A stretch of DNA of 58,680 nt, counting the filler, from Malassezia furfur (taxonomy: Eukaryota): the NCBI GenBank assembly GCA_052055015.1. It is 6 parts of 6 records of this genome, joined end to end, with 100 filler letters (N's around TTAATTAATTAA, not from the genome) between each part and the next. Parts side by side here need not be neighbours in the genome. Positions count along the whole stretch, not along the records: positions 1 to 9,768 come from JBQJIT010000410.1; 5 more parts are not named here. One strand, 5' to 3'. Position numbers and translations under genes: made by a program. Below the pieces are notes generated by a model. The model ran no database searches, had not been told where the DNA came from, and saw only the letters and a program-made list of their open reading frames with translations. Shown here one piece after another: positions 1-45,754 of this stretch (the first letter of the stretch is position 1; each line of letters starts with the position of its first letter).

Positions 1-3000
1 TCTGGCGCAAAAACGGCGCGAGGAAGCGCAGCTGCGCGAGGAACAGGCGGTGGAAGGCCGCGCGTCCCTCGGGCTGCTTGGCGCCGAGCAGCTGGGGCAG
101 GAAGAGGCGGTGCGACACGAGTGACACCCATGCAAACGCGAAGCCGGGGAAGAAGAAGGGCTGCAGCGTGTGCAGCGAGTTGGCGATCGCCAGCAGCGCG
201 GCAAAGTAGGCGCCATGCAGCTGGTTCTCGGCGCCGTGCAAGTCGTGCAGCAAGCTCGAGAACAGGCGGAAGAAGGGGCGCTGCTGGAAGCGCGCGCCGT
301 GTGCCTCGTGCGCCTGCGCAAGGACCAGCGTGACGATCGACAGGATCTTGGTGAGGTAGTGCACCTTAGCCGCCTCGTCGTTCACGCCGTGCGGGTCCGC
401 ATGGTACTTGACCATGTACACGATCATCTTGGCAAACGTGTCCACCGGCGAGTACAGCCCGCTCGCCAGCGTCCCGCCGACCGCCTGCTGCTTGAGGAAG
501 TGGTCGACGCTCACCTCGGTGCACACGCGGAAGAAGAGCGAGCTGATCTCTTCGCCCTTGAGCACGTTTTGGCTCTGCAGCTGGCGCACGTACTCGATAA
601 AGGTCTTTTCCGGCGTGGACGACTGCTGGTACACGCGCACCCAGTTGGCAAAGGAGTAGGCGAGCTGCTCGCGCAGCGGCAATTCGCCGGCGCCCTCGCT
701 TGCCTCTTCGAGGAGTGCGGCGACGCTCGGCGAGGCGCGGCCGAACTGCGCGGCCTGTGCGAGCGCGCCGAGCAACCCCTGGAGCTGCGCACGTCCCGCC
801 AGCTTCTCACGCAGGCACGCACGGGCGAAGGCGACGCTGAACTCGACGACGCTCGGGCGGAAGTGCGTGCGGACGAGCAGCTTGGCGAGCTGCTGGTCCT
901 CGTCGGCGATCGCCACGAGGTTGGCACGCACAAGCGCCAACGTGACGGGCACATTGAACTTGCGCTCGTCCTCCGCAAAGACGAGCCAGGCGGTGACTTC
1001 CTTGGCGACCTTGGGCGACTGCTCGCACAGCTGCTCGAGGAGCGCCACCCACACATCACGTGCCAGGTCCGACGGCGCCTTGTAGAGCAGCTGCACGACC
1101 TTTTGCGCGAGGAGCAAGATGGCGTCGTCGCGCGGCGCCGCAACGCTCACAAGCTCGGTGAGCGACGGCGAGATCTGGCGCACAAAGTGCGTCGCGGGCA
1201 GCGTCGCGAGCGTCTGCGTGTCGCCGACCTCCGCAAAGAAGGGCTCCAGCTTGGCGGCGATCAGGCCGAAGCGCTCGAGCGCCTGCACGGGCGCGAGCGT
1301 CGCGACGGCCATCTCTTCGTACGCCTCAGCAGCGCGCACCTCGTCGACGCGCGGCTCCATCGGCATTGCGAGGCTCTCGTACACGCGCAGCTGTGCGGGC
1401 TGCAGGCCGGGCGGCGCAATGCGCAGCGGGTCGGGCAGCTTGGTGCTGTAGTGCGACAGCGCGGCGCTGTCCCAGAACAGCGTGCCGCGGCCGTGCGCAC
1501 GGAACTCGCGACGCGCGGTGTAGGCGGCGGCGAGGCCATCGTCGACCTTGGCGAGCGCCTTTTCCATCGCCGTCTTTTCGATCACCACGCACGCCAAGTC
1601 GAGGTTGTCCTGCACCAGGAGCAGCAGTGCCTGCTCGGGCAACTGCTGCTCGGTGACACCACCCGCGGCAAACAGCGTGCGCGCGTGCGCCAGCACACTC
1701 ACGCGCAGCGGCTCCTTGCACGTAACGAGCGCGAGGCTGCCCGCCATGCTCTGCGCCATGTGGTGCGCCGCGGCGGCCATCTTGCGCTCGTCGGGCTCCA
1801 TCGCAAAGTCTTTGCTCACGAGCTCGCGCGTGGAGATCGACGCGATGGTCACGGAGCGCTCGACCACCGGCGTGATGATCTCCTGGATCGCGCGCTCGAT
1901 CGCGACAAACAGCACGCGCTTCCACGGCGCCTGATTCGCGTACGGCACCACCTGCGGGCTCACCACGATGTACTGCGCCATGTTTTGCAGCAGCGCACCG
2001 AGCTTGTCGACCGGCGCATACGCGTCGTTCACCGCAAGCTTCTCCATGCCCTGCGCCAGCGCCGCAGCGCCGGGGTAGGCCGCGATGGCTTCCGGCGGCG
2101 CCTCGACGGGCCGACGGCCAAGCAGCAAGACACTCGGCTCGAGCGCCTGGAGGTCGACCTGGAGCGACTTGAACAGCACCTCGATCTCAAACTTGAGATT
2201 CAGCTTGAGGTCGGCGAACTGATACAGCTCCACGAGCAAGCGGCACACGGCCATCAGCCACGGGTTCGGCGGCTGGAACACGTCCGAGGACGCACAGTGC
2301 TCCAGCACCTTGCACACGAACGGGATCACCACAATCAGGCGCCCGCTCTCGTGGCCCTGCAGGAGGAGCTCCTTGAACGCGAGGTTGCGGAAGCGGATCG
2401 GCTTGTTCTTGGCGAGCGTCGCGCTGCCGAGCCACGATGCAAGATTCTTGAGCACGGTGCGCTCCGACGTCGACTGCATCGTCTTTTCCGACTCGAGCAA
2501 GTTCTTCAGCTTGACAAACGTCTCGTAGAGCACGTAGCGGTACACGGCGCGCTGCTCCAGACCGTCGAGCACGTGCATGTACAGCTCGTGGTTGTTCGGC
2601 TCGATGCTCGCACGCTCGAGCACAAGGTACTTGGCGAACCAGTGCAGGATGCCGGGCTGCACCATCTCGCGCAGCGCGGGCATCTTGCTAGCAAAGTTGG
2701 CCGTCGTCAAGTTGTTGAGCGTAAAGAGGATCTTGTCGGAGAGCTCCTCGCTCGGCTTGTGCTGCGCATCGCCGGCCGGTAGCGCATCGGGCGCGATCGC
2801 CGCAAAGCTGCGCGCATCGGCGAGCGTCGGCGGCGGCGGCACCTTGCCGCTCTTGGCGTTCGCAAGCGCATGCGTCACGACGTTGACGAGCTCGGGGTGC
2901 GTCTGCTGCAGCTGTGGCAGCGCCAGCAGCGCCTGGCACAGCTGCGGCCACTCGGCGAGGCGCGCCTGGAAGCGCAGCAGCGCCTGAATGCCAAAGTGGA

Positions 3001-5251
3001 ACATGGTCGAGTCCGGCGGAGAGCGCAGCGCGTCGAGCACGTAGCGGATCGCGATGCCGAGCGGGATCGAGTCGATCAGCTGGTACTGGATCAGTGAGCC
3101 GAACACCACCGCGGTCATCAGCAGCTCGCGCGGCGGGTAGTATAGCTCGAACCAGCGGTGCTCGTCAAACAGCGTGTGCACCATGCACGCGAACAGCTGG
3201 TGGTCGTGCTCGTCGTCCGACAGCTTGCACCGCTGCAACAGCGCAATGATCTCGTCCACGCTCGTCTTTTCCTCGTACATCTGGCGGTACCACGTGTCTG
3301 CCTCGCGGTGGATGTCCTTCGGGAAAGAGGCCACCGACAAGCCCGGCTCGACGCCCTCGGCGCCGGGCGTGAGGGACATGAGCCGCGGGTGCAGCTGCAG
3401 GCACAGGTTGCGCACCACCTTGAAGTGCTCAATCTCTTCGGCCGACATGCTGTCGCCGTTCGCGCGCAAGACGCGCAGAATCGTGGCGACCGTCTGCACG
3501 CTGAGCGGCACAAACGTCGGCTCCACCTGCGGGTCGCGCCGCAGCAGGTCGGCCTTGACCTTGCCCTCGAGGAAGTCGAGCGCCGCGTGGATCACGTGCG
3601 GCTCACTGGCCTCGCCGACGAGGCGCTGCAGGTAGGGCTCAAGCGCCAGGTAGTCGCGCCGCGCCGCGTACGCCGCCACGTCCAGCGCAAATGCCAGCGG
3701 ACGCAGCTCGAGCAGGCGGTCGACAAACTGCAGCTCGTGCGCGACCTCGACAATGCGCGCAAGGTGCAGCGGCGACTCGCGGTAGACGCGCAGCAGCAGG
3801 TCGAGCAGCAGCGTCGGCGAGGTGTGCCAAAGCTGCCAAAACACAAGCTGCTGCTGCGTGTGGCCCGCCAGGAACATGACAAGCAGCTTGCTCACCAGCT
3901 CGGGGTGCACCGCGTTCGTCGACTGCGGCAGCTGCACCAAACCGAGAAGCACGAGCTCGGCGTGCGTCTTGATCGCCCGCTCGAGGATCGCCGTAACCGC
4001 CTTGCCGACCTCGGCACCATCCTCGGTGCCCGAGGCGCTGCCGGCCAGTTCCATCAGCGTCTCGATCAGGTCCAGCGAGTTCCACGTAGAGTCGACGGCG
4101 TGCTGCGCCTGAGTCTGCACCACCGCCGGCGCCTGGGCCAGCGCGTCGAGCGTCAGCACACGCCGCGTGTGCACCGCGGTAAAGGAAAAGGTATCTTCGC
4201 CGAGCACCAGCAGGTTGTACAACAGCTGGAGCTGGCGCAGCCGGTGCGTCCACACGCCCCAGAGACCGGCGACTGCAACGTCGCTGGCGTCCGCCAGGGT
4301 GTCAGCAGCGGGCGCAGCAAGTAGCACGGCTGCGAGGCCCATGCCGAGGCCGACGCTCGGCGCAAATGTCGCATACTCGAGGGCATCGAGCCTGCGAATC
4401 ACCTGCGCCCATGACAGCTGCTTGTCGAGCGCCGACAGGGCACGCGTAAGTGCGTCAAAGTTGGTCACGGGGCGCTGCGCCGCCACCGGTGCAGAAAAGA
4501 GCGTACCGAGCAGCTGCGCCACGTCCTGCACCGATGCCGACGTCCACTTACAGTGGGTCAGCAGCGAACGCGCCAGCTCCACGGACACCAGGCCGTCAAG
4601 ACCCAAGTCGAGCAGCACACTGGCCAAGGTGCGCTTGGCGGGCACCTTGGGCACGGCCGTGAGCAGCGCCTGGGACAGCACATCGGCGCCCACGCGCTCC
4701 TTTGCTGCGGAAAAGATCTGCTGCCGCTCGAGCGGCGCAAGCGCGGGACCGTCGTGCGACGGATCCGCGAGAAATTGGGAAAGAAAGGCGCCGAGTGTGG
4801 CCGGCGTCGTCGCCTGCCGGCTACGCGCGAGCTGGTCCAAAGCCGCATCCAATACGGCCGTGCTCGGCGCGTCGGGCGGCAGCGTCGACGTGCCCACGTC
4901 GGGTAGGGGGGTAAACATGGTGCGCGTCACAAGGGAGGCGCACTGCTGCAGGGCTTGTTGGGCCAAAGGCTGGTCGTTGGCTGCGCGCTGCAGTTCCGTT
5001 TGGAGTGTGTTGCGCGCACGCGAGCCAAACTCGTCGACGAGCAAGGCAAACTCACGAAGGGTGTCTTGGTAGTTGTCCGGCGCGAGTCGCCAGACCAGGT
5101 AAGCGATCTGCCGCTCGGCAATGCCGGGTACCGATACGTCGCTTGCCGCACGCGCTTCGCGGCTCCTCTCCGGCGTACTCGAGTCCCGTTGCGTCAGGCC
5201 TACTCGTGCCTGCGAACGGAGCGTCTGCGCGATCGGTGATATGCCCCGCAC
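1..5251 (-). CDS. NOT1: CCR4-NOT scaffold subunit Not1/Cdc39, 3'-partial (runs off the window start); start codon uncertain
   Basis: One frame, absent from the ORF track because no stop is reached. It encodes the N-terminal motif QIAYLVWRLAPDNY..E...V..FG, the MIF4G segment LKNLASWLGSATLAKNKPIRFRNLAFKELL...PPNPWLMAV..LLVELY..ADLKLNLKFEIEVL and the C-terminal LQPFFFPGFAFAWVSLVSHRLFLP. First in-frame ATG is 4918; 5251 is a candidate GTG start. Confidence 0.93.
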   Translation of the reverse strand, partial: MRGISPIAQTLRSQARVGLTQRDSSTPERSREARAASDVSVPGIAERQIAYLVWRLAPDNYQDTLREFALLVDEFGSRARNTLQTELQRAANDQPLAQQALQQCASLVTRTMFTPLPDVGTSTLPPDAPSTAVLDAALDQLARSRQATTPATLGAFLSQFLADPSHDGPALAPLERQQIFSAAKERVGADVLSQALLTAVPKVPAKRTLASVLLDLGLDGLVSVELARSLLTHCKWTSASVQDVAQLLGTLFSAPVAAQRPVTNFDALTRALSALDKQLSWAQVIRRLDALEYATFAPSVGLGMGLAAVLLAAPAADTLADASDVAVAGLWGVWTHRLRQLQLLYNLLVLGEDTFSFTAVHTRRVLTLDALAQAPAVVQTQAQHAVDSTWNSLDLIETLMELAGSASGTEDGAEVGKAVTAILERAIKTHAELVLLGLVQLPQSTNAVHPELVSKLLVMFLAGHTQQQLVFWQLWHTSPTLLLDLLLRVYRESPLHLARIVEVAHELQFVDRLLELRPLAFALDVAAYAARRDYLALEPYLQRLVGEASEPHVIHAALDFLEGKVKADLLRRDPQVEPTFVPLSVQTVATILRVLRANGDSMSAEEIEHFKVVRNLCLQLHPRLMSLTPGAEGVEPGLSVASFPKDIHREADTWYRQMYEEKTSVDEIIALLQRCKLSDDEHDHQLFACMVHTLFDEHRWFELYYPPRELLMTAVVFGSLIQYQLIDSIPLGIAIRYVLDALRSPPDSTMFHFGIQALLRFQARLAEWPQLCQALLALPQLQQTHPELVNVVTHALANAKSGKVPPPPTLADARSFAAIAPDALPAGDAQHKPSEELSDKILFTLNNLTTANFASKMPALREMVQPGILHWFAKYLVLERASIEPNNHELYMHVLDGLEQRAVYRYVLYETFVKLKNLLESEKTMQSTSERTVLKNLASWLGSATLAKNKPIRFRNLAFKELLLQGHESGRLIVVIPFVCKVLEHCASSDVFQPPNPWLMAVCRLLVELYQFADLKLNLKFEIEVLFKSLQVDLQALEPSVLLLGRRPVEAPPEAIAAYPGAAALAQGMEKLAVNDAYAPVDKLGALLQNMAQYIVVSPQVVPYANQAPWKRVLFVAIERAIQEIITPVVERSVTIASISTRELVSKDFAMEPDERKMAAAAHHMAQSMAGSLALVTCKEPLRVSVLAHARTLFAAGGVTEQQLPEQALLLLVQDNLDLACVVIEKTAMEKALAKVDDGLAAAYTARREFRAHGRGTLFWDSAALSHYSTKLPDPLRIAPPGLQPAQLRVYESLAMPMEPRVDEVRAAEAYEEMAVATLAPVQALERFGLIAAKLEPFFAEVGDTQTLATLPATHFVRQISPSLTELVSVAAPRDDAILLLAQKVVQLLYKAPSDLARDVWVALLEQLCEQSPKVAKEVTAWLVFAEDERKFNVPVTLALVRANLVAIADEDQQLAKLLVRTHFRPSVVEFSVAFARACLREKLAGRAQLQGLLGALAQAAQFGRASPSVAALLEEASEGAGELPLREQLAYSFANWVRVYQQSSTPEKTFIEYVRQLQSQNVLKGEEISSLFFRVCTEVSVDHFLKQQAVGGTLASGLYSPVDTFAKMIVYMVKYHADPHGVNDEAAKVHYLTKILSIVTLVLAQAHEAHGARFQQRPFFRLFSSLLHDLHGAENQLHGAYFAALLAIANSLHTLQPFFFPGFAFAWVSLVSHRLFLPQLLGAKQPEGRAAFHRLFLAQLRFLAPFLRQ

Positions 5252-5366
5252 GGTGTCTCGCGAGTCTCGCTCGCCGTTCCCAGCGCTGCAGCGCAATGAA
5301 AGACGACGAAGAACGACGACGCCCGGCCCCCCGCGTTTCGGCCGAATTCCTATGTCCAATGAGCGT

Positions 5367-8300
5367 CTAGGGAGATCCGGTGGCCGTGCGCGCCCCGATC
5401 AGGTGCGCGGCCAGCGCCGCGATCACCAGCATGTACATCTGCATGAGGTTGGCCATCACAAAATGCGTGATGCTCTGTCCGATCTCGAGCCAGGAACCAG
5501 TGTCTCGGATCGCAAAGAAAAAGTTGAGCGCCAGCACATCCCCGGCAAGCGCCGCGGCAGTCAGCGGAATGTAGACGTCGCGCACGCCCAGCCCACTCGC
5601 CAGAATCGACACGCGGTCGGTCTCGGGCGGGTAGGCGCGGCCCTCGGTAGGCTCGATGCACAGCGTGGCGAGCACCCCCGATAGAAAGACAAACGGCACA
5701 ATTAGCTTGAGCACCAGCAGCGCCGCCATCCAGAACGGGCTAAAGACCGGCAACAGTCGGTACACGGGCGACAGGTAAAACGACGAGATGGACGCAATGT
5801 TGCCCGTGCCAAAGAAACCGACGTGCAGCAGCAAGAAGTAGAATACGCCGACCCGCACGTCGTCCAGAATCATGCCGCGCGGCGCCGGGCGCGGCGTATT
5901 GGCGGCAATCGCGCGATGCCGCGCTAGTTCGGCCTCAAAGTGCGCCCAGGTGAGCACCAACACAGTGTAGACAAACAGGAAGAAGACCTCGTCGCGCAGC
6001 GACAGCAGCACAAATACCGGCGCAACCGCATACACGAGAAGGATGAGGCGCTGGCGCTTTGGCTGTGCATACGTCTGCCCGTCATGCGCCCTGGGGCGCT
6101 GAAAGCCGACGGCAAACGGCATGGTGAGAGACAGGGCAAGCACGAGCCAGCCAAGCACCTGGTTCCCCAACGGCAGGCCCTGCTTGCTCCGCAGGCTGTA
6201 CGCGGACGACGCGGTTGTTGCGCACGCGACCAGAAGGAGCACGAGCTGGCCACCGAGGGCCTGGCGCGTGCGCGGCAGGAAATCCACGGGGTCCTCGGTG
6301 TCTTCGTTGGGCTCGCGCTCCCACATGCGCATTTGCTCCTCGGACCGCGCCATGGCACGCGCATACACCTTCTTGTCGCGGCCCAGGTAGTCGGCATTCT
6401 GAAAAAAAGTCGTAGGCCACGCCCACAGCGCCGCGCCGACGACAAAAAAGAGCAGGCCGCTCAGGACGAGTTGTGTGATGCTCTCCTCCTTCTCGGTGGA
6501 CTTAACCATAAAGTAGACGCTCGAGGCTGCACATACGATCCACACCAGCAAGGCGAGCTCGTGAGCATTTTGAAAGTTGCGTGGCATGGTGAACGGCCAC
6601 ATCATGCTGCCCAGCAGCAGAAGGGCCCACGCGACTCGGTGCAAGTAGCCATAGGCGGCGACCTCGAGGAGCGCCAGCAGCACAATGGCGTACAGCCCGA
6701 CGCGTGCGAGCGTCTGCATACGCGCAGCACGCTCCGACACACCCGCGCGCAGGCGCTGCGCCGACGCGCGCGCCAATGCAACGCCATACACATGCGCACG
6801 CAGTGCGACCAACATCCACACGGCGCTGCATGCACCGGCGTACACAAAGTAGATGAGAGGCGAGCCGTTGCGCACAAACTGGTGCACGACGTATGCCGAG
6901 GCGCCCACCACGACAGACACGGGCGCCCACTGCAACTGGTACGCCGCAACGTGGTCATCCAGAGCGTAGTGCAGCAGGAACGTCGTGCCGTACAGCAGCA
7001 CACCGATGTATCCCAGCACGACGATGGCCATAAGCGTGCGTGCGTCGTACTTGTGCAGGTACATGGCGCCCTGAAGCGCGAGATGAATCAGCTCCGCACA
7101 CTCCTCGAGTGCCTCGTCGTACTCGCCGTCATCGATGCGCTGCGCAATGCTTGCCACGAGGTCGGCACCGGGGGGGTCACCGTCCAGCGGCGCATAGGGT
7201 ACAAACGAGCTCATGCGCGCCACGAGCTGGTCATGCTTGACCCGGTACACCTCGAGCACCTGCTCGGCATTCGCACGGGCGGCGTGTGCAGCATAGGCCG
7301 GGTCGACGTCCACGTACGCGAGCGGCAGCTGTCCCTCGGAGTTGGCGGGCATCGGTACGCCCAGCCACGTCGCCAGCAGCGGCGCAATGTCGGCCTGCTC
7401 GATGTCGTGGCGCGCGATGGCGTCCAGGTCCCAGTCCTCATAGTAGTTCTCTTCCGGAAAGTCGTACGAGGCCGCGCGCTTGGGTCGCGGCACACCGGCA
7501 CCCCAGGCAACGATCGGCGTGCGCGTATTGTCCGGGTCGCCGTCGCCATGGTTGCCTCGCTTGGACATGCCATGGTCGGCGGTGAGGATGTACGCAGTAC
7601 GCTCATCGGCGAAGTACGCACGGAATAGGTCCTCGACCTCGTGCGTGATGGCGTCCACGACGATCGTATTCCCGACGTATTCTGCTGAGTGCGGTCCGTA
7701 GGTGTGTCCGGTGGTGTCGAGGCCGAGCAGGTGCAGGAAGAAGAAGGTGTGCGGCGCACGCAGCTGTGCGTCCAGCACAGGATCTGCGCGTGCGCGATCG
7801 AGCAGCGCACGCAGCTCATCCAGAACCCACACATCAAGCTCGACGGCGTCCTTGGTAAAGTCCTCGGCGTCCTCGTCGTACACAGCAGCATCGACGCGCC
7901 CCGGAGGTGTGCCAAGCGCAAACATGGGCACAATGTCAGGCGAGCCAAATGCATACGTGTGCGCCGACTGGTTCAACACCGAGTCGAACGCGATGGGGTT
8001 CACTTTCCACCCCCGCGTCACAGCGCTTATATCTTCGTACATGCCCGCCAGCAGCGCGACGTGCCCCGGGCGCGACTCTGTAGGAACGCGCGTATGACTT
8101 ACGCCGTATGTTCCGGACTTCGCCGCGATGCCATGCAGATACGGCGCGGCAAATGCGTCATCGACGTGCGCCTTTTCCTCCGTCGAGACATTCCGCGTAA
8201 AGGCGCTGGGAAAGGTGCCTTGGAAATACTCGCCGCTCGCGTTTTGTGCCACGAGGTCTGCCTGCGCCCACATGGGGAAGCGTGCGGGCTCGTGCGCCTT

Positions 8301-8528
8301 GAAAAGCGTGTCGGCGCGCAGTCCGTCGGCGACAAAGAGCACGACGCGCTGCGCCGGTGCCGGCCCCGCCTGGGCCGCGTCGACCGCGAAACGCGGTGTG
8401 GGATGTACGACGGGCGAGCGAAAGTAGATATCAAAGATGGACCACGTAAAGATTAAATGGAATACAAGGGTCGTCGCGAAGAACTCGAGGCGGCGCGACG
8501 GCATCCACCGAGACCACGCAGCGCGCAT
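5367..8528 (-). CDS. MCD4: GPI ethanolamine-phosphate transferase 1 (Mcd4/PIGN)
   Basis: Motifs VADGLRAD, SHTRVPTESRPGHVA, HLLGLDTTGH, TADHGMS..G.HGDG, a multi-TM C-terminus and FFGTGNIASISSF. ATG at 8528, alternative at 8504. Confidence 0.95.
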   Translation of the reverse strand: MRAAWSRWMPSRRLEFFATTLVFHLIFTWSIFDIYFRSPVVHPTPRFAVDAAQAGPAPAQRVVLFVADGLRADTLFKAHEPARFPMWAQADLVAQNASGEYFQGTFPSAFTRNVSTEEKAHVDDAFAAPYLHGIAAKSGTYGVSHTRVPTESRPGHVALLAGMYEDISAVTRGWKVNPIAFDSVLNQSAHTYAFGSPDIVPMFALGTPPGRVDAAVYDEDAEDFTKDAVELDVWVLDELRALLDRARADPVLDAQLRAPHTFFFLHLLGLDTTGHTYGPHSAEYVGNTIVVDAITHEVEDLFRAYFADERTAYILTADHGMSKRGNHGDGDPDNTRTPIVAWGAGVPRPKRAASYDFPEENYYEDWDLDAIARHDIEQADIAPLLATWLGVPMPANSEGQLPLAYVDVDPAYAAHAARANAEQVLEVYRVKHDQLVARMSSFVPYAPLDGDPPGADLVASIAQRIDDGEYDEALEECAELIHLALQGAMYLHKYDARTLMAIVVLGYIGVLLYGTTFLLHYALDDHVAAYQLQWAPVSVVVGASAYVVHQFVRNGSPLIYFVYAGACSAVWMLVALRAHVYGVALARASAQRLRAGVSERAARMQTLARVGLYAIVLLALLEVAAYGYLHRVAWALLLLGSMMWPFTMPRNFQNAHELALLVWIVCAASSVYFMVKSTEKEESITQLVLSGLLFFVVGAALWAWPTTFFQNADYLGRDKKVYARAMARSEEQMRMWEREPNEDTEDPVDFLPRTRQALGGQLVLLLVACATTASSAYSLRSKQGLPLGNQVLGWLVLALSLTMPFAVGFQRPRAHDGQTYAQPKRQRLILLVYAVAPVFVLLSLRDEVFFLFVYTVLVLTWAHFEAELARHRAIAANTPRPAPRGMILDDVRVGVFYFLLLHVGFFGTGNIASISSFYLSPVYRLLPVFSPFWMAALLVLKLIVPFVFLSGVLATLCIEPTEGRAYPPETDRVSILASGLGVRDVYIPLTAAALAGDVLALNFFFAIRDTGSWLEIGQSITHFVMANLMQMYMLVIAALAAHLIGARTATGSP

Positions 8529-8579
8529 GCTGGTGGAAGCGCGTGGATGCACGTGCGCCGGCGCCGCGCCGGGTGGAGG

Positions 8580-9664
8580 CTATGGTACCCAGACCTGCTC
8601 GAGCTGGTTCGACTCGTCCTGGGCCTGCTGTTGCATTTGCTCCATGTGGGCGCGTGCCAGCTGGTGTTCCTGGGTTTCGGAGCGGAGGCGATTGACGAGG
8701 CGGATGCCATGTACCGCCTTGCGGAAGGTGCGCTTGGCGTTGAAGGCGCTCTTGAGGTCTGGCAGCAGGTCCTTCTGCTCCGCGTCTTCCGTACGTCCCG
8801 CGTGCCGGATCCACGGATGTTGCAGTGCCTGCGTCGCCGTCATCCGCTGGTTCTGGTCAATGGTAAGCAGGCGGCGGATAAAGTCGCGCACCTCGTCAGA
8901 CACGTCACGCCAGTAGATCTCGGGCTCAAACTTGTAGTCGGCATTGACGATGGCCTGCATCTCCTCGGCGCCCGAGTCGCGGTCAAACGGCGTGTAGCCA
9001 CAGAGCAGGAAATAGGTGATCACGCCAATGGCCCACATGTCGACTGGCTTGCCATGGCCCGTCTTGCGGAAGATCTCGGGGGCCATATACCCTGGCGTGC
9101 CGCATGTCGTGCTGAGTGCCGTCATCTTGTCGTCGTCGACCATGCGCGACAGGCCGAAATCGGCAATCAGCAGGTCGGAGTGCTCGCTGCGGTCGCGGAA
9201 CAGCAAATTCTCCGGCTTGAGGTCGCGGTGGACGATGCCCTGCGCATGCAGGTACTCGACCGCCTCCAGCACTGTCCGGATAATCTGAGCCGCATCCTTC
9301 TCATAGTAGCTGCCCCGCTCGCAGATGCGGTCGAACAACTCTCCGCCTTGGCAGAGATCGGTGACCAAGTATAGATTGTTCATCGTCTCGAAGTAGTCGA
9401 CCAAAGATACGATGCCTTTGTGGTCCACCGAGACGCGCTTTAGAGATGCAATTTCGTTGCGCACCATGTGCTCGCGCCCACGCATCAGGCTCTTGCTAAT
9501 GACCTTGCATGCATAGTACTTGCCAGTCTCAATGTGCACCGCTTCCTTGACCACCTGCGTGAATAAAAGTCACGTACAGCATATGTTCCTTGACCAAGCG
9601 TCCGGCCCGTTTTGTAGGCACACGGCACCGTAGCAGGCCGCTGCGCTGCTGCGTTCGTCGCCAT
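8580..9664 (-). CDS. CMK1: Ca2+/calmodulin-dependent protein kinase (CaMK1 family), 1 intron
   Basis: LGQGTYA|VVKEA is restored by a 23-nt intron at 9555-9577. Also HRDLKPEN, DFG, CGTPGYMAPE and a CaM-binding-like FNAKRTFRKAV. Confidence 0.9.
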
Positions 9665-9768
9665 CGTGGGGGATGGGGGGCAGACGCGATCCGTCACGTG
9701 ATACAACCATCCGCTCGATGGACTTCTTTGGTGGGGCGAAGCCGAAGGAGCGTGCACAGGGCCGGGCG

Positions 9769-9868
9769 NNNNNNNNNNNNNNNNNNNNNNNNNNNNNNNN
9801 NNNNNNNNNNNNTTAATTAATTAANNNNNNNNNNNNNNNNNNNNNNNNNNNNNNNNNNNNNNNNNNNN
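9769..9868. other. Artificial contig spacer (N44-TTAATTAATTAA-N44)
   Basis: Six-frame stop linker flanked by Ns. Confidence 0.99.
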
Positions 9869-14562: not shown

Positions 14563-17500
14563 ATGTCGGCGTGGATGTCGAGCGGGCGCGAGCCCGTGGT
14601 CCTGCTGCAGGACTCGGTGTTCCGCGTGCGCCAGTTCGTGCAGACGCTCCCACCGGGTGCTAACGAGGCGCTGCACGCCGACCCGTACGTCGCGCCGAAC
14701 GCCGCGGGCATCGACGCCGAGTCGGAGTATGCGTTCTGTACAACGGCCGACCGTGCGCATGTCTGGCGGAGCAACAGCGCGAACCCGACGTGCTACACGT
14801 TCCCGATCCCTGCATCGAGCGACCACTGTGCTGTGCACTGCACACTCCTCCCGCGACCGCTCAACGAGAGCGCCGAACCTGCGCTGCTGCTCGCGAATGC
14901 CCAGGGCGAAGTGCGGTTCTGGGACGTGGTCTCTGACGCATTCACCACGCCTGAGGCCGAAATCGTGCAGACCCAGCTCCCGCTCGAGCACGGCGAGGTG
15001 CTTACCGCTGCCACACGCATCGACGTACGTCCCGCCCACTGACGCAGCCGAGCCAAGCCGTGTACGCAACGAGCGCGGCGCGCCTCTTCCGCGTGCATGC
15101 CTACGTACACCGCGGCGAGCACCACCTCGTGCACTCCGTGTATACCGAGCACAAGGGCTTGCTCAGCCGCTTCTTCCAGTCGGCGCCGGGCGCGGCCGGG
15201 AGCGGCACCATCAAGCGCCTTGCGGTCGGCGCCGCGTCGGCGGATGCACTGCATGTGCACCTGTATGCGCTCAGCGCCCATGCCGTGCAGGTGTGGCGCG
15301 TGCCAATCGCCGGCTCTGGCGCGGCGTCGCACCAGCCCAAGCACCTCGTTGACGACGACCAGCTGCACAAGACCATCGCGAGCCGCGCGATGTGTGCGAG
15401 CGGACGGCGGTACAGCAACGCCGCTGGCGCCCAGCTGCAGCTCGTCGACATTGCGCCGTTGTCAGCGCACCGCATCGCCGTGCTGTACGCGGACCAGAGC
15501 GACGTGTCGTCGAGTGCTGCGGCGTACGGCCTGGCGCTGGTGGGCGTCGCCGCCGACGGCACACTGGCCGTAGAGCAGGTGCGTCCACTGGCCTACCGCC
15601 GCGCGAACGACCCCCGTGCCCTGCCGCGCCTCGCCGTGTCCGAGAGCGCGCCGCCCGTCGCGTTTGTCGCGTTCGACGACGCGCTCGTCACGCAGCTGCT
15701 CGGCGATACCGCCGGCGGCGCCGTCGAGGAGAGCGTCGTGCTCAAGCCCGGCGAGAACCGTGTACTGGGTGCGGCACTGGTGCTCGCACCTGGCGCACCG
15801 GGCGCGCGCGCGGTGCGCTGGGCCGCGCAGACGTCGCACAGCGGCGTGCTGCTCGTCGACATGGACGTGGCACATGCGGCACACATCGCCGAGGAGCAGC
15901 AGCCAACGTCGCCGACCATGCACGCCGCGCGCGTTGCGCGCCTCCAAGAGCGCCTCGAGAAGGGCGTGTGGTACGGCGAGGACGCGGCGAATCCGCTGCA
16001 GCTCGACACGCTCCCCGACGACCTCGACACGGATCTGCTGCAGGCCGCTGTCGAAAACATCAGCCGTGCGCTCGTGCGTGGCGAGCTGAGCGCAATGCGT
16101 ACGTCGGTCGACCTGCGCACGGCGCTGGCGCAGCGCGTGGCGTGCTGCGTGCGCCTGATTGCGCTCGTGGGCGAGAATGGCTACCTGATGCGCCTCGCCC
16201 GCACCGCGCGCCTGCAGCTGCGCAGCGATGCCGAGCTGCTGGCCGGTGCGGGCGACCTGTGGCGCTTCTTTGATGATAGCGTGCAGAGCGGCACGCACGG
16301 CGCACACCTGCTCCCCGCGGCGATCCACACCGCGCTCGGCACGCAGAGTACGCCGCACGACACGGAGCGCTTCTTTTTCGAGCACGAGCTGGAGCAGATG
16401 CCTGCGCTGCTCGCCGCACTGCTTGCCGCCGTGCAGCCGCGCACGGACGATGCGCGCGCCGTCGTCGAGGCTACGCGGCTCGTGCTTGCGCTGCGCTTCG
16501 GCGCCGCGCGTTTCCGCGCGGAGCACGGCGAGGCGTATGCCCTCGACGCCACGCCGGCCGTTGCGTTCGAGCCGTGGTTCGCGCACGCGAGCAGCATTGA
16601 GCTGCTCGAGACGCTTTTCCGTGCGACGCTGCACACGCTGCAGCGCAACGCCAAGGGTGTCAAGGTCGCCGAGCTGCGCACGCAGCTGTGTGCGCTCGCC
16701 GAGTTTACCATGGACACGTACGATGCGCGCCTCGTCTACCTCACCGCGGCTGCGGCCGACGGCGACGGGAGCGGTCCGGCGCTCGAGGCGACACGCGCCG
16801 CGTACGACCACGCGCGCCCTGCGCTGCTGCACCCATTGCTCGACGTCGGGCGCGCCGACAAGGCGTTTGCGCTCGCCGAGCAACACCGCGATTTTGCAAC
16901 ACTCACTGCGCTGTGCTTTGCGACCGCACCCGAGGACACCGCGGGTGGCAAACGTGCTAAGCATACGCACCCCGCGGCCGCCGCGCACGAGCCGGCCGAG
17001 GTGCGAGTCGAGGCCTACCTGGACCGATACGGCATGCCGTTTGCCGAGGAGCTGTATCAATACTACATCCAGCACGGCGCGTTCCGCAAGCTGTTTGAGC
17101 CGCAGCCGGAGCATGCGCCGCTTGTGCTCACCTTCCTCGAGACGCATCCGCAGTATCGTCGCATGGCGTGGGTGCACGACGTGCTGCTCGGCCGCTTTGA
17201 CCGCGCGAGCGCCATGCTCCGTGTCTGTGCGCGCGAGGAGCGCGACGACTACCGCGCGAAGCAGTCGATGCTGAGCCTCGGCAAACTCGCACACCTCGCG
17301 ACGCTCAGCGACCTCGACGCGGCGCTCGCCGCGCCGCAGGAGCAGGCGGCGCTCGAGGCGTTTGACGACGCCCTGGACCTCGTCCACGTGCAGAACCGGC
17401 TGCGCGACCGCTGGGCACATGCCGCGCACACGGCCCAGACCGCACCCGAGGCCGCCGCGGAGCGTGTCGTGCAGACCGTCGCGCCGCGCCTCGACGCATG

Positions 17501-18206
17501 GCCCGCGACGCGCGCGCTGTTTGTCATGCTCGCCACGCAGCTGCTCGCCGGCCACGTGGCATCGGGCGAGGCGCTCGTGGACCTGCTCACCCTGCAGGAC
17601 CCTGCGTACGCGGCGCCCGCCGCCGACACGGCGCTGACCGACTTTGCCATTGCGGTGCAGGTGTACGTGCGCATCGACGCACCGGGTGAGCAGAAGCACA
17701 CGCTACTCGCGATGCTGTGGCGCCGGCTGTACCTCCAGGACGATTGGCACGCAGCAAGCTCCACGGCGCACAAGACCGACCAGGCCGTGCTGGAGGAGGT
17801 GCGCAGCACCGTGGCCTTTGCCACCATCCAGGCGGTGCTTGCGAACGAGAGCACGGCGCACGTGCTGCTCAGCCCCGAGCAGGTGTGCGCCCGTGCGCCG
17901 CCGAGTGTCGAGGCGCTCGCGGCGCGCTTCCCCGGTGTGCCGCACGTCCAGCTCACGCAGCTCCATGACGAGTGGGAGGCGGAGCATGCACAGCTCGTCG
18001 AGCTCGTTGAGCAGACCAAGCTCGCCTCGTTCTTTGCGCAGGTACTCGCCCAGCCCGTGCCCGATGCCGACCCGGTCGAGGCCCGGACGGCACGCGCCGA
18101 CGAGGTCGACGAGGACGACGACATGCACGACGCGCCGTGGGCTGAGCGCAAGCTGCCCGGGTACGCCGCATTTGATGCGCCTCTTGACGTCGAGGAGGCA
18201 ATATAG
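14563..18206 (+). CDS. NUP133: Nucleoporin Nup133, 1 intron
   Basis: About 1200 aa, propeller-like N-terminus plus helical stack; AFALAEQHRDFATL, WVHDV...FDRAS, MLSLGKLAHLA. A 23-nt intron at 15025-15047 joins the 14350 and 15060 ORFs. Confidence 0.8.
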
Positions 18207-18400: not shown

Positions 18401-19623
18401 CTAGCGCCGCCGCACGGTCTGCGACTGCTGCAGCTTGCGCTGCGCACGCTTCTTCTCGATCTGCTTGCGCTTCGCCTGCTCAGCAGGCGTGAGCTTCTCA
18501 AACTTTTCCTGCTGCGCCTTGCGCCGCGCCTCCTCCCGCTCCTCCTGCTCGTCGGCATCCGCGTACTGCGCGGCCTGCTCCTCAAGCGCCTTGGCGACCT
18601 CGACGCGCGTCTTCTTCAGCGAATTTTGCGTCTCGGGACGCAGCGCCAGGAGCGTCGAGCGGCCCAGCGACGCGAGGTAGAGCGCATCGATGATATCGAG
18701 TGCCGCGGCGAGCACGGGGAACGTCGCCTCCGTGTCGCGCACCGAGCGCGGCAGGCGCAGCGTTACCACCACGCGGTCCACACTCGGCGAGCTTGCCGAG
18801 GCCGGGCGCGATTCCGGCTGGTCGCTCACGACGATGCTCTCGACGAAGCGGCCGGCGGGGCCATTGATGGCCTCGACGAGCCCAAGACGCTTGCGCTGCT
18901 CGTCGCCGCGCGCGCCGACCTCGCCCAGGAAGCGGTCCGTCAGCTCGCCGTGCTCCGACGCAATCGCGAAGCGCTCGTCCAGCGCCCGCTGCGCGTTGGC
19001 GTTGTCCGCGTCGGCCACCTTGGCGAACAGGAGGTCAAACCGGTTCTGGCGCACGTGCTGCAGCGCGTGCTTGTCAATCAGTGCAAAGGTGCCGAGCGTG
19101 CGCTTCTCGTCGCGCGGCAGGCGGAAGGCGAGCGCGACGCGGTCGTGCACTTGGACGGGCGTCGAAGGGAGCCACAGGTGGTCATACAGGAATGCGCCCA
19201 CGCGCTTGAGCACATCGTGGCGCGGCGCAAGTTGGAGTGTGGCCTGCAGGGCATCGACACCACGCCGGCCTGACGCAAACAGCATGGCGTCCGCCGCGCC
19301 GTTCCAGACGAGCAGCGAGCGGTCGTCGCCGGCGCCGACGAGCGCAAACTCGGTGCGCAGCGCGCGCGCGTACGTCTCGGCGAACTGGTTCGCGATACGG
19401 CGGTTGCGCCAGCGGCCGATCCAGGCTGCCAGCGCGTACAGCAGCGCGAGCGCGAGCAGCGCGCCCTGCAGATAGAACTGCTCCGGGTAGAAAGCGACGT
19501 GGAACTTGCCGACGTCGCCCTCCCAGAGCGGGGGGTGAGTGGGCTTCGGCACCGCACGAAACGGGTCGAGCACCTTGGTGACCGCGTCGGCGAGCGGCTG
19601 GAATCGCTGCGCAAGCACGTCCA
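18401..19623 (-). CDS. DUF1682/CCDC47 (PAT complex) ER membrane protein, 5'-partial
   Basis: Single TM followed by GRWRNRRIA..F, FASGRRG, and a C-terminal coiled coil KFEKLTPAEQAKRKQIEKKRAQRK. Confidence 0.8.
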
Positions 19624-19723
19624 NNNNNNNNNNNNNNNNNNNNNNNNNNNNNNNNNNNNNNNNNNNNTTAATTAATTAANNNNNNNNNNNNNNNNNNNNN
19701 NNNNNNNNNNNNNNNNNNNNNNN
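19624..19723. other. Artificial contig spacer
   Basis: N44-TTAATTAATTAA-N44. Confidence 0.99.
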
Positions 19724-20209: not shown

Positions 20210-23209
20210 TTACAAGCGACTGTGCCAGTCGAGCTCCTGGAGCCGGCGGCGCCCTTCGGAGCCGCCGTAGAGCGTATTGATCTGTGCCTCGAGGCTCATG
20301 CCAAACACGGCCGCGAGCGCCTCGTGGATCGTGCCGACAAACACGACCTGCAGGTCGTCGCGCACCGTCTTCGGCAGGTCCTGCTCGTACTCTTTGCGGT
20401 TGCGCGTCGGGAGCACCACCTTGCGGATCCCTGCACGGTGTGCGCCCAGCACCTTTTCCTTGATGCCGCCCACCGGCGTCACATGCCCACGCAGCGTGAT
20501 CTCGCCCGTCATCGCGAGGTGCGGGTCGAGCGGCACACGCAGGTAGAGCGACACGAGCGCACATGTCATGGCGACGCCCGCGCTCGGCCCGTCCTTGGGC
20601 GTGGCGCCCGAGGGAATGTGCAGGTGCACGTCGTTCTTGGGGAACTCGGACGCACGGTCCGCCGTGATGCCGAGCGCAAACGCGTGCGCCTTCACCCACG
20701 AGAACGCGAGCTCGGCGGATTCGCGGATCACGTCGCCAAGCGAGCCCGTGAGCTTGAGCTGCGCGTTGCCGGGCGGCATGAACGCCGACTCGATGTGCAG
20801 GATGCCGCCGTTGCCCGAGCCCTGGTACGCCAGGCCCGTCGCGACGCCCGGCACGCCTTCCGCATCGGCGACCTCGGGCTCGTACGTCTCGTGGCCGAGG
20901 ATGCGCGCGAGGTCCGCGACGCGCACCACCGGGTCGTACGCCTTGTTGGACGACATGCCGCCGAGGCTGCGGTGCTCGGCGTACTCGACCGCCTTGGCAC
21001 GCACCACGTCGCCGATGCGGCGCTCGAGCGTCCGCACGCCGGCCTCGCGCGTGTACGCGGTGGCGACCGCGAGCAGCACCTCGTCGCTGATCTGCACCTG
21101 CGCGGGCTGCAGGCCCTGTGCCTCGATCTGCTTCGGGAGGATGTGCTGCCGCGCAATCGCCACCTTTTCGTCGTGCGTGTAGCCGGGCACCGACACCACG
21201 TCCGTGCGGTCGAGCAGCGGCTCGGGGATCGTGTCGAGCGTGTTGGCCGTCGCAATGAACAGCACGCGGCTCAGGTCGACGGGCACGTTGATGTAGTGGT
21301 CCTTGAACGTGTGGTTCTGCTCGGGGTCCAGCACCTCGAGCAGCGCCGCGGTGGGGTCGCCGTGCAGCGCATTCCCGCTCGACAGCTTGTCGACCTCGTC
21401 GAGGAGCATCACACAGTCGCTCGCCTTGGCGCGCCGCAGCGCTCCCACGATCGAGCCGGGCAGCGCACCGACGTACGTGCGCCGATGCCCACGGATCTCG
21501 GCCTCGTCGCGCACACCGCCCAGCGACAGGCGCACAAACGGACGCTGGAGCGCCGCGGCCAGCGAGCGCGCAATCGACGTCTTGCCCGTGCCGGGCGGGC
21601 CGACCAGCAGCAGGATCGGGCCCTTGTACTGCACCGTGACGCGCCCAAGGTCGCCCACGTCCGCATCGGGCGCCGCATGCGCCGCGCGCGCCTCGGCCGC
21701 CTCGCGCGCCTGCACCTGCTTCAGGTCAAGCACCGCGAGGTACTCGAGGATGCGCTTCTTGATCTTGTCGAGGCCATAGTGGTCCGCATCGAGCACCTTG
21801 CGCGCGCGGGGGATGAGCGGCTCCGCGTGCACGTCGCCGGCCGCCGACGTCGGCACCAGCGACGCGAGCGTCTCGGCGTCCAGGTCCGCCGACGTGCGCT
21901 CCCACGGCAGGTCGGCCATCGTCTCGAGGTAGTTGATCAGCATGCCGCGCTCCATGCTCTGCGACGGCATGCGCTTCAGGCGGCGCAGCTCCTGCTGGCA
22001 CGCCTTGCGCGCCTCGGGCGTGAGCGGCACCTGCTCGAGGCGCGCCGCGAGCGCCGCCACTTCGTCCGCGCCGTCGTCGTCGTCGTCGTCGTCCATCATG
22101 CTCCGCGCGCGCGACGGCGGCGGCGGCGGCGCATCGTCCTGGCCCACGATACGCCGCGTCACCTGCGGCGCACGCTCCTTGCCCGGCACGCGGCGCACCA
22201 CGGCACGCTCGTCGCCCTGGCGCGGCGGCTCGCCCTGGAAGATGCGCAGCGACGACACCACGCCGGGGTTGATGCGCGCCAGCTCGGCCGCGACGGTCTC
22301 GAGCTGCGCGCGCGACAGCGCCGAGCGCTGCTGGTCGTGCAGCGCATACGGGATCGCTAGGAGCATCTCGCGCAGCGTCTGCATCCGCGCCACGCCGCGA
22401 TCAAGCATCTGCGTGGTGTACGCCACGCGCGGCTCGACGGGCACGATCGTCAGGTGGTGCAGCCGCTCGTCCCACGCACACGCGCCACCGAGGGCGCCGA
22501 CAAGCAAGTCGGCCAGCATCCCGCTCGACATCTGGTCAAACTCGCGCAGGAGCAGCGTCACGCGCTTCAGCAGCGGCGGCGGCAGCAGCGGCACACGCGC
22601 CACCACCGAGTTGGGCGACGCGGCGTGCGTCGGGATGGACGCGCGGCCCATCAGCTCGACGAGCCGCTTCGCCGACTTGCGCATCGCACGCACGCCGGGC
22701 GTCTCGTCCTTGGGCGCGGCCGCCGTCAAGTCTTGGGGGAAGGCACGCAGCTCGACGACCGTGATGTTGGCCACGACGGGCTCGGCGGCAAGCACGGGCC
22801 TGCCGATCTTCGCACGCATCAGGCCCGAGATCTGCAAGCGGCACTCTTCGCTCGCGGGCGAGTTGACGAGGCGCAGCACACGCGCCACACATCCCCACGT
22901 GTGCAGACCGTCGAGGCTGTCGGGCGGAATCTCGCCGACCTCGGCAGACTGCTTCGCGACACACAGGATGAGCACGGGACGCTGGGCATTCGCCTGCGCC
23001 TGCTTCGACGTGGGCACCGTCTCCGAGGCGCGCGCCTCTTGCGCGTCGAGCTCCTTGCGCTCCTGCAGGGCCGTGCGCAGCAGGCCGAGACACGTCGTCT
23101 GCGGCACCGGGATGGAGAGGACAAGGCCAGGATGCAAAATCTGGGGGTACGGCAGTGCCAGAATCGGCAGCCGATGTGGGATCACCACAGCTCCGGTCGA
23201 TGGGTCCAT
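20210..23209 (-). CDS. LONP2: Peroxisomal Lon protease (LONP2/Pln)
   Basis: Walker A GPPGTGKT, HRRTYVGALPG, LDEVDK, catalytic KDGPSAG and GGIKEK; C-terminal PTS1 tripeptide SRL. Confidence 0.93.
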   Translation of the reverse strand: MDPSTGAVVIPHRLPILALPYPQILHPGLVLSIPVPQTTCLGLLRTALQERKELDAQEARASETVPTSKQAQANAQRPVLILCVAKQSAEVGEIPPDSLDGLHTWGCVARVLRLVNSPASEECRLQISGLMRAKIGRPVLAAEPVVANITVVELRAFPQDLTAAAPKDETPGVRAMRKSAKRLVELMGRASIPTHAASPNSVVARVPLLPPPLLKRVTLLLREFDQMSSGMLADLLVGALGGACAWDERLHHLTIVPVEPRVAYTTQMLDRGVARMQTLREMLLAIPYALHDQQRSALSRAQLETVAAELARINPGVVSSLRIFQGEPPRQGDERAVVRRVPGKERAPQVTRRIVGQDDAPPPPPSRARSMMDDDDDDDGADEVAALAARLEQVPLTPEARKACQQELRRLKRMPSQSMERGMLINYLETMADLPWERTSADLDAETLASLVPTSAAGDVHAEPLIPRARKVLDADHYGLDKIKKRILEYLAVLDLKQVQAREAAEARAAHAAPDADVGDLGRVTVQYKGPILLLVGPPGTGKTSIARSLAAALQRPFVRLSLGGVRDEAEIRGHRRTYVGALPGSIVGALRRAKASDCVMLLDEVDKLSSGNALHGDPTAALLEVLDPEQNHTFKDHYINVPVDLSRVLFIATANTLDTIPEPLLDRTDVVSVPGYTHDEKVAIARQHILPKQIEAQGLQPAQVQISDEVLLAVATAYTREAGVRTLERRIGDVVRAKAVEYAEHRSLGGMSSNKAYDPVVRVADLARILGHETYEPEVADAEGVPGVATGLAYQGSGNGGILHIESAFMPPGNAQLKLTGSLGDVIRESAELAFSWVKAHAFALGITADRASEFPKNDVHLHIPSGATPKDGPSAGVAMTCALVSLYLRVPLDPHLAMTGEITLRGHVTPVGGIKEKVLGAHRAGIRKVVLPTRNRKEYEQDLPKTVRDDLQVVFVGTIHEALAAVFGMSLEAQINTLYGGSEGRRRLQELDWHSRL

Positions 23210-23364
23210 CGTGGGGTGATAAGAGCAAAGACCTCACGCGGGTGGCGCAGGGTCGTGCGGGGTGGAGGTGGGGGCGGCTCCGCTGCACCGCGCCGGTCGG
23301 CCCCCGCCGCGTCATCGGCCGACGCCTTCCGACACGCACCTCCACATCGTCACGCCTGCCTCGC

Positions 23365-24961
23365 ATGCTTGCGCCGTCGGTGCGCCGCTGCGCCGCGTCG
23401 CATCTCGGCCGCGCATCCGCACCCGGAGCGACTGGCGCGCGTGTGCGTTTCGCGCCATCGCCTACCGGCTACCTGCACGTCGGCGGGCTGCGCACCGCGC
23501 TCTTCAACTACCTCCTCGCACGGCACACCAAGGGCACCTTCGTTCTTCGCATCGAGGACACCGACCAAACCCGGCTCGTGCCGGGCGCCGCTGACGCGCT
23601 GCAGGACGCACTCACGTGGGCAGGCATCGAATGCGACGAGGGACCCCGCCAGGGCGGCGCGTACGGGCCTTACGTCCAGTCGGAGCGCCTGCCCATTTAC
23701 CGCACCTACGCCGAGCGCCTGCTGCATGCGGGGCGTGCGTACCGCGACTTTCGGCCGCCCGTGCAGCGCGACGCCAACGCACGCACCTCGGCGCTGCTCC
23801 GCGAAGCCTACCTGCCGCCGAGCGAGGACGAGGCACAGGAACGCATCGCTCGGGGGGAGCCGTACGTCATCCGCCTCCGCATGGAGCCTGGGCGCACGTT
23901 TGCATACGAGGACGGCGTGTACGGCACCATGACCTTTCGGCCAGACATGATTGGCGGCGTGGGCGACGACCCGATCATCGTCAAGTCGGACGGGTGGCCG
24001 ACATACCACCTCGCGTCGGTCGTCGACGACACCGAGATGGCCATCACCCACGTCCTCCGCGGCGAGGAATGGCTCCCGTCGATGCCCAAGCACCTCGCAC
24101 TGTACGAGGCCATCGACGCCAAGCCGCCCACGTTTGTGCACCTCCCGCTGCTCATCAACGCGGACGGCAGCAAACTGTCCAAGCGGTCCGGCGACGTGCG
24201 TGTCGAAGACTATCGCGCACGCGGCATCGAGCCCGAGGCGCTCGTGAACCTCGTGGCACTTACAGGCTACAACCACCAACATACGGACGCGGACGACAGC
24301 GACGTGCTCTCGATGGCGCAGCTGATCGACGAGTTCGAGCTGCGCCGCATCTCGCACTCGCGCGCGACGCTGCCCACCGAAAAGCTGCCTTTCCTGAACC
24401 GGCGGCACATGATGGCCAAGATGCACGACCCATCGACGCGCCCGGCCATGCTCGCGCGGCTCCGGCCGCTCTTTGACGCCGAGCTCGGCGCGGAGGCCGC
24501 GCGCGCCATCCCCGACGACGCGCTGCTCGACACGGCGGCGTTGGGATGCCAGCGCGTGGATACCCTCGCGCAGGTGCCGCACAGCGTCGCGTACTATTTC
24601 CAGCAGCCCGACTGGGGCTCCGAAGAGTGCCGCCGCTTTCGCGCGTCGGTCAAGACACCCGCATTTGGTACGTACGGTGCACCGTGTCCCACTAACCGCA
24701 GAGGGCGTCTTGCGCAGCGCACCCACCTTCTTTGAGCAGGTCAGCGCGTGGGAATCGGCGGAACTGCACACCGCGCTGCAGGCATGGATGAAGGCACAGC
24801 CAGAGGGCCGCGCCGCCGTGCAAAAGAGCCTGCGCATCGCGCTCTCCGGCAAGAGCGCAGGACCGCCCGTCGCCGAGATCGCCCATGCGCTCGGCCAGGC
24901 ACAGACCGTGGCGCGTTTGCACGCGGCCCTGGCCTGGGACGCGGCGCATCGCACGCCGTAG
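23365..24961 (+). CDS. MSE1: Mitochondrial glutamyl-tRNA synthetase, 1 intron
   Basis: Arg/Ala/Ser-rich presequence, RVRFAPSPTGYLHVGG, HVLRGEEW, KLSKR. A 34-nt intron at 24668-24701 joins the anticodon-binding tail LRIALSGKSAGPPV. Confidence 0.92.
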
Positions 24962-29416: not shown

Positions 29417-29516
29417 NNNNNNNNNNNNNNNNNNNNNNNNNNNNNNNNNNNNNNNNNNNNTTAATTAATTAANNNNNNNNNNNNNNNNNNNNNNNNNNNN
29501 NNNNNNNNNNNNNNNN
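29417..29516. other. Artificial contig spacer
   Basis: N44-TTAATTAATTAA-N44. Confidence 0.99.
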
Positions 29517-39183: not shown

Positions 39184-39283
39184 NNNNNNNNNNNNNNNNN
39201 NNNNNNNNNNNNNNNNNNNNNNNNNNNTTAATTAATTAANNNNNNNNNNNNNNNNNNNNNNNNNNNNNNNNNNNNNNNNNNNN
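39184..39283. other. Artificial contig spacer
   Basis: N44-TTAATTAATTAA-N44. Confidence 0.99.
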
Positions 39284-45732: not shown

Positions 45733-45754
45733 CGCACGCGACCGGCGCCGCAGC

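Follow-up and report, generated by a model that had tools for sequence, protein, structure and literature searches.

Where does translation of NOT1, the scaffold of the CCR4-NOT deadenylase, begin in Malassezia furfur, when the conserved N-terminus of the protein lies upstream of any AUG? The question arises in a 58,680-nucleotide (nt) stretch of M. furfur DNA (NCBI GenBank assembly GCA_052055015.1; six parts of six records joined end to end, filler included), which was analyzed at its full length and is called the window here. NOT1 is on the minus strand of the first part (JBQJIT010000410.1, positions 1–9,768). An original prediction, made from the window alone, held that full-length Not1 starts at a near-cognate codon. 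Comparison with relatives supports this claim, through three distantly related contigs, a valine at the site in named species, and a test of reading frames. Full-length Malassezia Not1 is probably initiated at GUG 5251–5249, a conserved near-cognate start 111 codons 5′ of the first in-frame ATG.

On the minus strand, NOT1 lies in an open reading frame (ORF; 2..5398) that extends from 5398 as far as the window edge and contains six Pfam CNOT1/Not1 domains with E values of 8e-91 to 9e-20. In order, these are CNOT1 HEAT, TTP-binding, CAF1-binding (MIF4G), DUF3819, ARM, and Not1 C-terminal, the last being cut by the window edge. Compared over 1750 residues with the NCBI M. furfur model of 3075 aa, the translated window shows 5 differences. 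The first in-frame ATG (4916..4918, context ACC ATG T) is codon 112 counted from the proposed start, and the remainder of the Pfam-supported ORF (2..4915) leaves the window at its low-coordinate edge, which is the 3′ side of the gene. Upstream, the frame is closed by a TGA (5399..5401) inside the ORF of the neighboring gene. That neighbor is MCD4, a GPI ethanolamine-phosphate transferase of the PigN family (5367..8528, minus strand; stop codon TAG 5369–5367; Pfam PigN). Minus-strand ATGs occur at 4918 and then at 5432, with none in any frame from 4919 to 5429. Both the closing TGA and the ATG-free run had been predicted, and both were found as described.

The segment between the proposed GTG and the first ATG (4919..5251, minus strand) comprises 111 codons. 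Codons 48–76 (5024..5110), QIAYLVWRLAPDNYQDTLREFALLVDEFG, form the conserved N-terminal motif of the NOT1/CNOT1 family. The motif had been placed at 5110, 64 codons 5′ of ATG 4918, and these coordinates hold. Its identity was borne out by a profile of seven Malassezia NOT1 N-termini (A1), which matched human CNOT1 chains 8FY4_A, 8BFI_A, and 8FY3_A in PDB (E 1.8e-27 to 1.8e-26). Positions 42–86 of A1 pair with CNOT1 residues 7–51 (conditional E 1.5e-6; weak when taken alone, with an independent E of 0.28). By this profile the N-terminal helical region, including its first residues, is homologous to the part of CNOT1 on which CNOT10 and CNOT11 dock. NOT1 homologues were also collected by a HMMER search of 1.84 billion representative proteins. 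In models from other Basidiomycota (Termitomyces, Atractiella, Rhodosporidiobolus), the initial Met is followed after about 10–50 residues by IVKAQIVFLLSTLTEDNF..EIRSL.EQHG, the counterpart of ERQIAYLVWRLAPDNYQDTLREFALLVDEFG in the window. Since this motif closely follows Met in other Basidiomycota and the Malassezia profile matches CNOT1, the conserved start of the family lies 5′ of the first AUG here. An AlphaFold model built on an 18-row alignment (mean predicted local distance difference test (pLDDT) score 82.4) folds residues 41–108 into four confident helices, with pLDDT 75–89 per ten-residue block, and places Met112 in a loop (109–129) after them.

NOT1 loci from three metagenome contigs (L001–L003), found in a single metagenome scan and belonging to a distant Malassezia-like clade (54% GC, 39% protein identity), were compared with the window. 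MCD4 lies upstream of NOT1 in all three. The sequence CACCGTGC (CACC-GTG-C; 5255–5248 in the window) is invariant between the window and L001–L003, and in L001–L003 an in-frame TAA lies 20 codons 5′ of the GTG. From the GTG their ORF runs for 2055 codons, its first Met is codon 121, and no ATG occurs in any frame before it. A 2055-aa ORF call with 759 cluster members begins at the same GTG codon. The ATG-free runs of 435, 514, and 435 nt are the longest of the respective loci, where the next longest measure 228–250 nt and the mean gap is 48–51 nt. Alignment of NOT1 5′ regions across relatives, which the original prediction had proposed as a check, thus recovered both a conserved near-cognate codon and AUG depletion in L001–L003.

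Conservation 3′ of the GTG has the signature of a coding sequence. Window and L001 differ mostly at wobble positions in SPIAQxLR (TCA/TCG, CCG/CCT, ATC/ATT, CTC/TTA, CGT/CGC), and the gaps between the window and L001–L003 measure 12, 6, and 3 nt, all multiples of three. When the GTG-to-ATG segments of window and L001 were translated in all frame pairs, frame 0/0 gave a local score of 94 (z=12.5 vs shuffles) and the eight other pairs gave z≤1.8. In the 117–120 nt upstream of the GTG no similarity was detected in any of the nine pairs (z≤2.6). Over codons 1–120, L001 and L002 differ at 3, 1, and 9 sites by codon position (binomial p=0.009), and of the codons that differ 8 are synonymous and 4 non-synonymous; indels are absent here, and intergenic DNA further upstream in these contigs carries indels of 1–3 nt. 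Frame-specific purifying selection 5′ of the first AUG is therefore present by the frame test, the wobble changes, the gap lengths, and the L001/L002 codon positions.

These comparisons bear on two simpler accounts of the locus. One is that Not1 starts at AUG 4918 only and that the upstream similarity reflects an untranslated leader that is conserved on other grounds. This AUG is where the NCBI M. furfur model WFD45611.1 (P0158; 1922 aa) begins (MFTPLPD), and the Met is invariant in 7/7 A1 sequences; however, Met is not found at that position in L001–L003. The upstream similarity is confined to one frame, with wobble changes and gaps in multiples of three, and it covers sequence that is homologous to the structured CNOT1 N-terminus and predicted to form confident helices. 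This account is very improbable. The other is that an ATG is missing through a sequencing error or a strain-specific mutation. The same state recurs in independent assemblies of two M. furfur lineages, M. japonica, M. yamatoensis, and the three metagenome contigs, and many Logan/ENA contigs agree (2034-aa calls, up to 21 contigs each), which leaves an error or private mutation next to no likelihood.

GUG 5251–5249 is favored among the possible near-cognate starts because it lies at the 5′ boundary of frame-specific conservation and because its position and context are both conserved. It has A at −3 and CC at −2/−1. This context matches the bases found most often around the first ATG in 24 long ORFs of the window, where a purine is at −3 in 16/24, C at −2 in 12/24, C at −1 in 13/24, and C at +4 in 10/24. 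A word-indexed search with the N-terminal 420 residues matched six relatives. The acc-GTG site reads Thr-Val in both M. furfur lineages (DTVRGISPIAQ), M. japonica (ITVRGISPIAQ), and M. yamatoensis (NTVRGISPIAQ), and in all the Thr-Val pair is present in 7/10 sequences: the window, M. furfur B (P0160), M. japonica (P0175), M. yamatoensis (P0005), and L001–L003. For M. furfur B and M. japonica, ORF calls from Logan/ENA contigs print M at this codon. The M in such calls, together with V in eukaryote-style models, indicates that the codon is GTG in both.

Initiation of the long form at one or more other in-frame near-cognate codons was weighed against this. Several are available in the window, namely CTG 5197, ACG, ATA, and ATC downstream and a TTG upstream. 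CUG is generally the most efficient near-cognate start, and the P0007 clade has Leu in place of Val. However, CTG 5197 falls within a 12-nt stretch that is missing from L001–L003, and codons 2–18, which lie 5′ of it, are conserved with wobble changes. Upstream of the GTG no frame retains similarity, and L001–L003 have their stop 20 codons away; GTG alone is conserved in both position and context. A start at another near-cognate codon is unlikely. Of the two candidates originally named, acc-GTG at 5251–5249 and ggc-CTG at 5197–5195, both are in frame as stated; the first is retained at the conservation boundary with its invariant context, and the second, absent from L001–L003, is not.

An AUG could also be brought in by an upstream exon, and several public gene models are built in this way. 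MCD4-NOT1 fusions are annotated for M. furfur (KAI3628076.1, 3076 aa, and a second model of 3075 aa), M. obtusa (3054 aa), M. japonica (3087 aa), and M. vespertilionis (3097 aa); the NCBI fusion models include KAI3628076.1, WFD02889.1, WFD38351.1, and the M. vespertilionis model. In the window, the annotated fusion corresponds to an intron at 5436..5286 (GTACAT..CTGCAG). An exhaustive scan for an ATG plus a single GT-AG intron of 18–259 nt leading into the NOT1 frame with no intervening stop returned 20 in-frame solutions in the window and 23–28 in L001–L003, and a leader block at 5308–5286 resembles a pyrimidine tract followed by AG. Against splicing, the fusion junctions differ in all four species (ANLMQ|IAGN, TAHSL|VAWAS, VIDRS|RRDAR, LLLAAN|SFPS), and the M. 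yamatoensis model (2379 aa) is fused to an upstream protein kinase, not to MCD4. All 20 window solutions take their ATG from within the MCD4 coding sequence and use introns of 70–247 nt with donors such as GTACAT, GTGATC, and GTTCCT. These introns are far from the mean of 30 bp given for curated M. sympodialis introns in excerpts of PMC5389616.

The distant clade offers no common splicing solution either. In L001–L003 the in-frame TAA excludes acceptors upstream of 6000, and the homologous acceptor (AG 6023–6024) is out of frame with an M. furfur-type donor by hand count. Two of the contigs, L001 and L002, allow a short-intron solution from an intergenic ATG at 5904; L003, with a 2-nt deletion, does not. 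The window has no intergenic ATG, in agreement with the original prediction that no upstream micro-exon could draw an AUG from intergenic DNA. Overall, no conserved MCD4-NOT1 junction was found in the models compared, no solution was common to the window and L001–L003, and the introns needed measured 70–253 nt. A spliced upstream exon, fusion included, is accordingly given little chance, marginally less than a different near-cognate codon. The fusions and truncations in models of six named Malassezia species show that annotators found no usable AUG at the start of NOT1. The NCBI models concerned are P0005, P0006, P0158, P0159, P0160, P0170, and P0175. The fusions deprive MCD4 of its stop codon, and those of M. 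furfur and M. vespertilionis also remove part of its C-terminus.

Several observations weigh against initiation at GUG 5251–5249. GUG is usually a weak start in eukaryotes, and at +4 there is a C in place of G. In 121-nt folds compared with shuffles, no stable or conserved hairpin was found 3′ of the GTG (window z=0.30, L001 z=−0.57). The ATG-free run of the window, 514 nt and the seventh longest on the minus strand, is by itself unexceptional at the GC content of the window (66.7%); 11 of 1337 ATG gaps on both strands of the window are at least 512 nt, and at least two of the longer gaps span runs of N. Over codons 1–120 neither L001 vs L003 (1 synonymous, 4 non-synonymous; 2/2/2 by codon position) nor L002 vs L003 (6/6) has a synonymous excess, the numbers being small in both pairs. 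The Thr-Val pair was not seen in 3/10 sequences, all read at the protein level. Of these, the M. obtusa ORF call begins 28 codons downstream (MDRRRD), with the region left out of the NCBI model for this species; in the M. vespertilionis model MCD4 continues into SFPSLTQRLRSQ; and the P0007 clade reads FILGPYSPIAQQ, with Leu where others have Val.

Further searches around the start were negative. Rfam (E≤1) returned no matches in 4700–5700, and ARAGORN detected no tRNA in 4500–6000. A scan of genome contigs for DNA of further relatives yielded a single irrelevant actinobacterial match (L004). In one supplement of the M. sympodialis proteogenomics study (PMC5389616), three P0007 peptides and the gene names were all absent.

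The 115 nt that separate the stop codon of MCD4 from the GTG (5252..5366, minus strand) contain no ATG and presumably hold the promoter and 5′ leader of NOT1. Within this spacer, a pyrimidine-rich, non-coding block ending in CAG (5286..5308), CGTCGTCTTTCATTGCGCTGCAG, aligns to CCTCTTTTTTCGGTGCGCTGAG of L001–L003 (L001 6003–6024), with a 2-nt offset relative to the GTG by hand count. A coding reading of the block was rejected because of this 2-nt shift between window and L001. The block ends in TGCGCTG(C/A)AG about 35 nt 5′ of the GTG, a feature common to the window and the distant clade; it looks like a 3′ splice site, and no conserved donor was found for it. Its role could be that of an element of the core promoter or the leader. 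The last 65 nt 5′ of the GTG are identical among L001–L003. L001 (5983–6000) and L003 (3259–3276) also have a five-codon upstream ORF, ATG GGA CCT CCG TCG TAA, in the NOT1 frame and 25 codons 5′ of the GTG. It ends at the in-frame TAA in both, and L002 has ATA in place of its ATG.

Codons 2–21 (5189..5248, minus strand), RGISPIAQTLRSQARVGLTQ, encode a basic peptide without an acidic residue that is nearly invariant in several species; codons 1–22 include 4 K+R and 0 D+E. Codons 1–21, with the initial V or M counted, are identical in M. furfur B and M. yamatoensis and match at 20/21 in M. japonica, and SPIAQxLR is retained in L001–L003 with synonymous changes (L001 6061–6110). These 20 residues after the proposed start are much better conserved than the next 90 or so. 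Residues 1–40 have low confidence in the AlphaFold model (pLDDT 38–49 over codons 2–21), and the first 40 or so residues of long Not1 are probably a disordered basic head. The conservation of this head could reflect a binding motif, a localization signal, or a start-proximal constraint. Outside Malassezia, a 2140-aa NOT1 model from another member of the Ustilaginomycotina, Sympodiomycopsis kandeliae (P0012, CAO1624704.1), starts at about window residue 93 and lacks the N-terminal motif. The start problem may extend beyond Malassezia, or this model may have missed an exon.

Initiation at GUG 5251–5249 would proceed as follows. The 5′ end of the NOT1 mRNA would lie upstream of the GUG, which a scanning ribosome would accept in its favorable context (A at −3, CC at −2/−1) and presumably decode as Met through the initiator tRNA. 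The 111 codons that follow would supply the basic head and, from the N-terminal helical domain, the first four helices, equivalent to the very N-terminus of human CNOT1. From the leader to codon 112 every frame is free of AUG, so ribosomes failing to initiate at the GUG would go on to the in-frame AUG 4918 and could yield Not1 without these helices. A short AUG isoform produced by such leaky scanning is plausible, as this stretch lacks AUG in every frame in two clades. Tentatively, the GUG and the AUG-free leader and first 111–120 codons may act as a rheostat that sets the ratio of long to headless Not1 by start-codon stringency (eIF1/eIF5, stress), in the Malassezia lineages readable at the GUG site; this possibility is rated well below an even chance.

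Animal EIF4G2 (DAP5/NAT1) uses a conserved GUG as its start codon, and its full-length protein has no alternative AUG start. Malassezia NOT1 would resemble it in regulating mRNA fate as a housekeeping gene and in requiring a conserved GUG, in good context, for its complete conserved protein. Unlike EIF4G2, it belongs to another protein family and kingdom and has an in-frame AUG 111 codons downstream that could give a second isoform; GUG use in EIF4G2 is experimentally proven, whereas in NOT1 it is deduced by comparison. Among fungi, yeast ALA1 and GRS1 reportedly have near-cognate-initiated N-terminal extensions. Excerpts of PMC5487733 and PMC7214817 describe such extensions for Neurospora crassa cpc-1 and for isoforms of fungal peroxisomal 6-phosphogluconate dehydrogenase, respectively. 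These cases share with NOT1 a conserved coding signature, in frame and ahead of the first AUG, as well as conservation of a near-cognate codon that has A at −3. In them, however, the AUG form is canonical, and what the extension provides is a targeting signal or an isoform. The Malassezia NOT1 extension bears the family's own conserved helices, so the non-AUG form would be the canonical one.

Human CNOT1 is a further comparison. According to excerpts of PMC12746107, it exists in long and short forms that differ at the N-terminus and are of unknown origin; the long form is extended at the N-terminus by at least 235 residues, which serve as a docking region for CNOT10 and CNOT11. Malassezia Not1 would likewise have two N-terminal forms, and its pre-AUG region aligns to the start of the human extra region. 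Unlike the human forms, those of Malassezia are predicted and would differ by 111 residues. The terms NOT1 and CCR4 do not occur in the excerpts of PMC5487733. No report of a GUG-started NOT1 was found in the partial texts retrieved on NOT1/CDC39/CNOT1 or Malassezia with non-AUG or near-cognate initiation, or on Malassezia proteogenomics.

Other ORFs in the window also have open codons before their first ATG. A homologue of CCDC47 (PAT complex; 18404–19675, minus strand) has a Pfam match from ORF residue 66, and its first in-frame ATG (19285) is residue 131. Its 5′ region holds runs of N (19624–19667 and 19680–19723), so its start cannot be judged. Four plus-strand ORFs (14955–18203, 45486–47918, 22972–24732, 43732–45729) have 67–145 open codons before the first ATG; the ORFs with such long stretches encode a nucleoporin, Hsp70, a Glu/Gln-tRNA synthetase, and PAF67. 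Pfam matches in these four all start 3′ of the first ATG, with no sign of a non-AUG start. Runs of N in the window come as paired 44-base runs about every 9.75 kb (9769–9868, 19624–19723, 29417–29516, 39184–39283, 48941–49040), and at least two of them, at 19624–19723 and 48941–49040, sit inside the longest ATG-free gaps of the window.

A NOT1 start at GUG would explain why public models are truncated or fused to MCD4 or a kinase. The annotation error is systematic, since each named public model seen either lacks about 111 residues or is joined to a neighboring gene. A non-AUG start for the main conserved protein, and not for an optional extension, is rare and mostly overlooked. Here it would affect an essential protein that regulates mRNA decay, in the genus that dominates the fungi of mammalian skin. 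The locus offers a testable case for the origin of N-terminal isoforms of the CCR4-NOT scaffold and for whether start-codon choice sets their ratio. If the rheostat is real, the composition of the main deadenylase would follow start-codon stringency, and Malassezia NOT1 would provide a mechanistic precedent for the long and short isoforms of human CNOT1.

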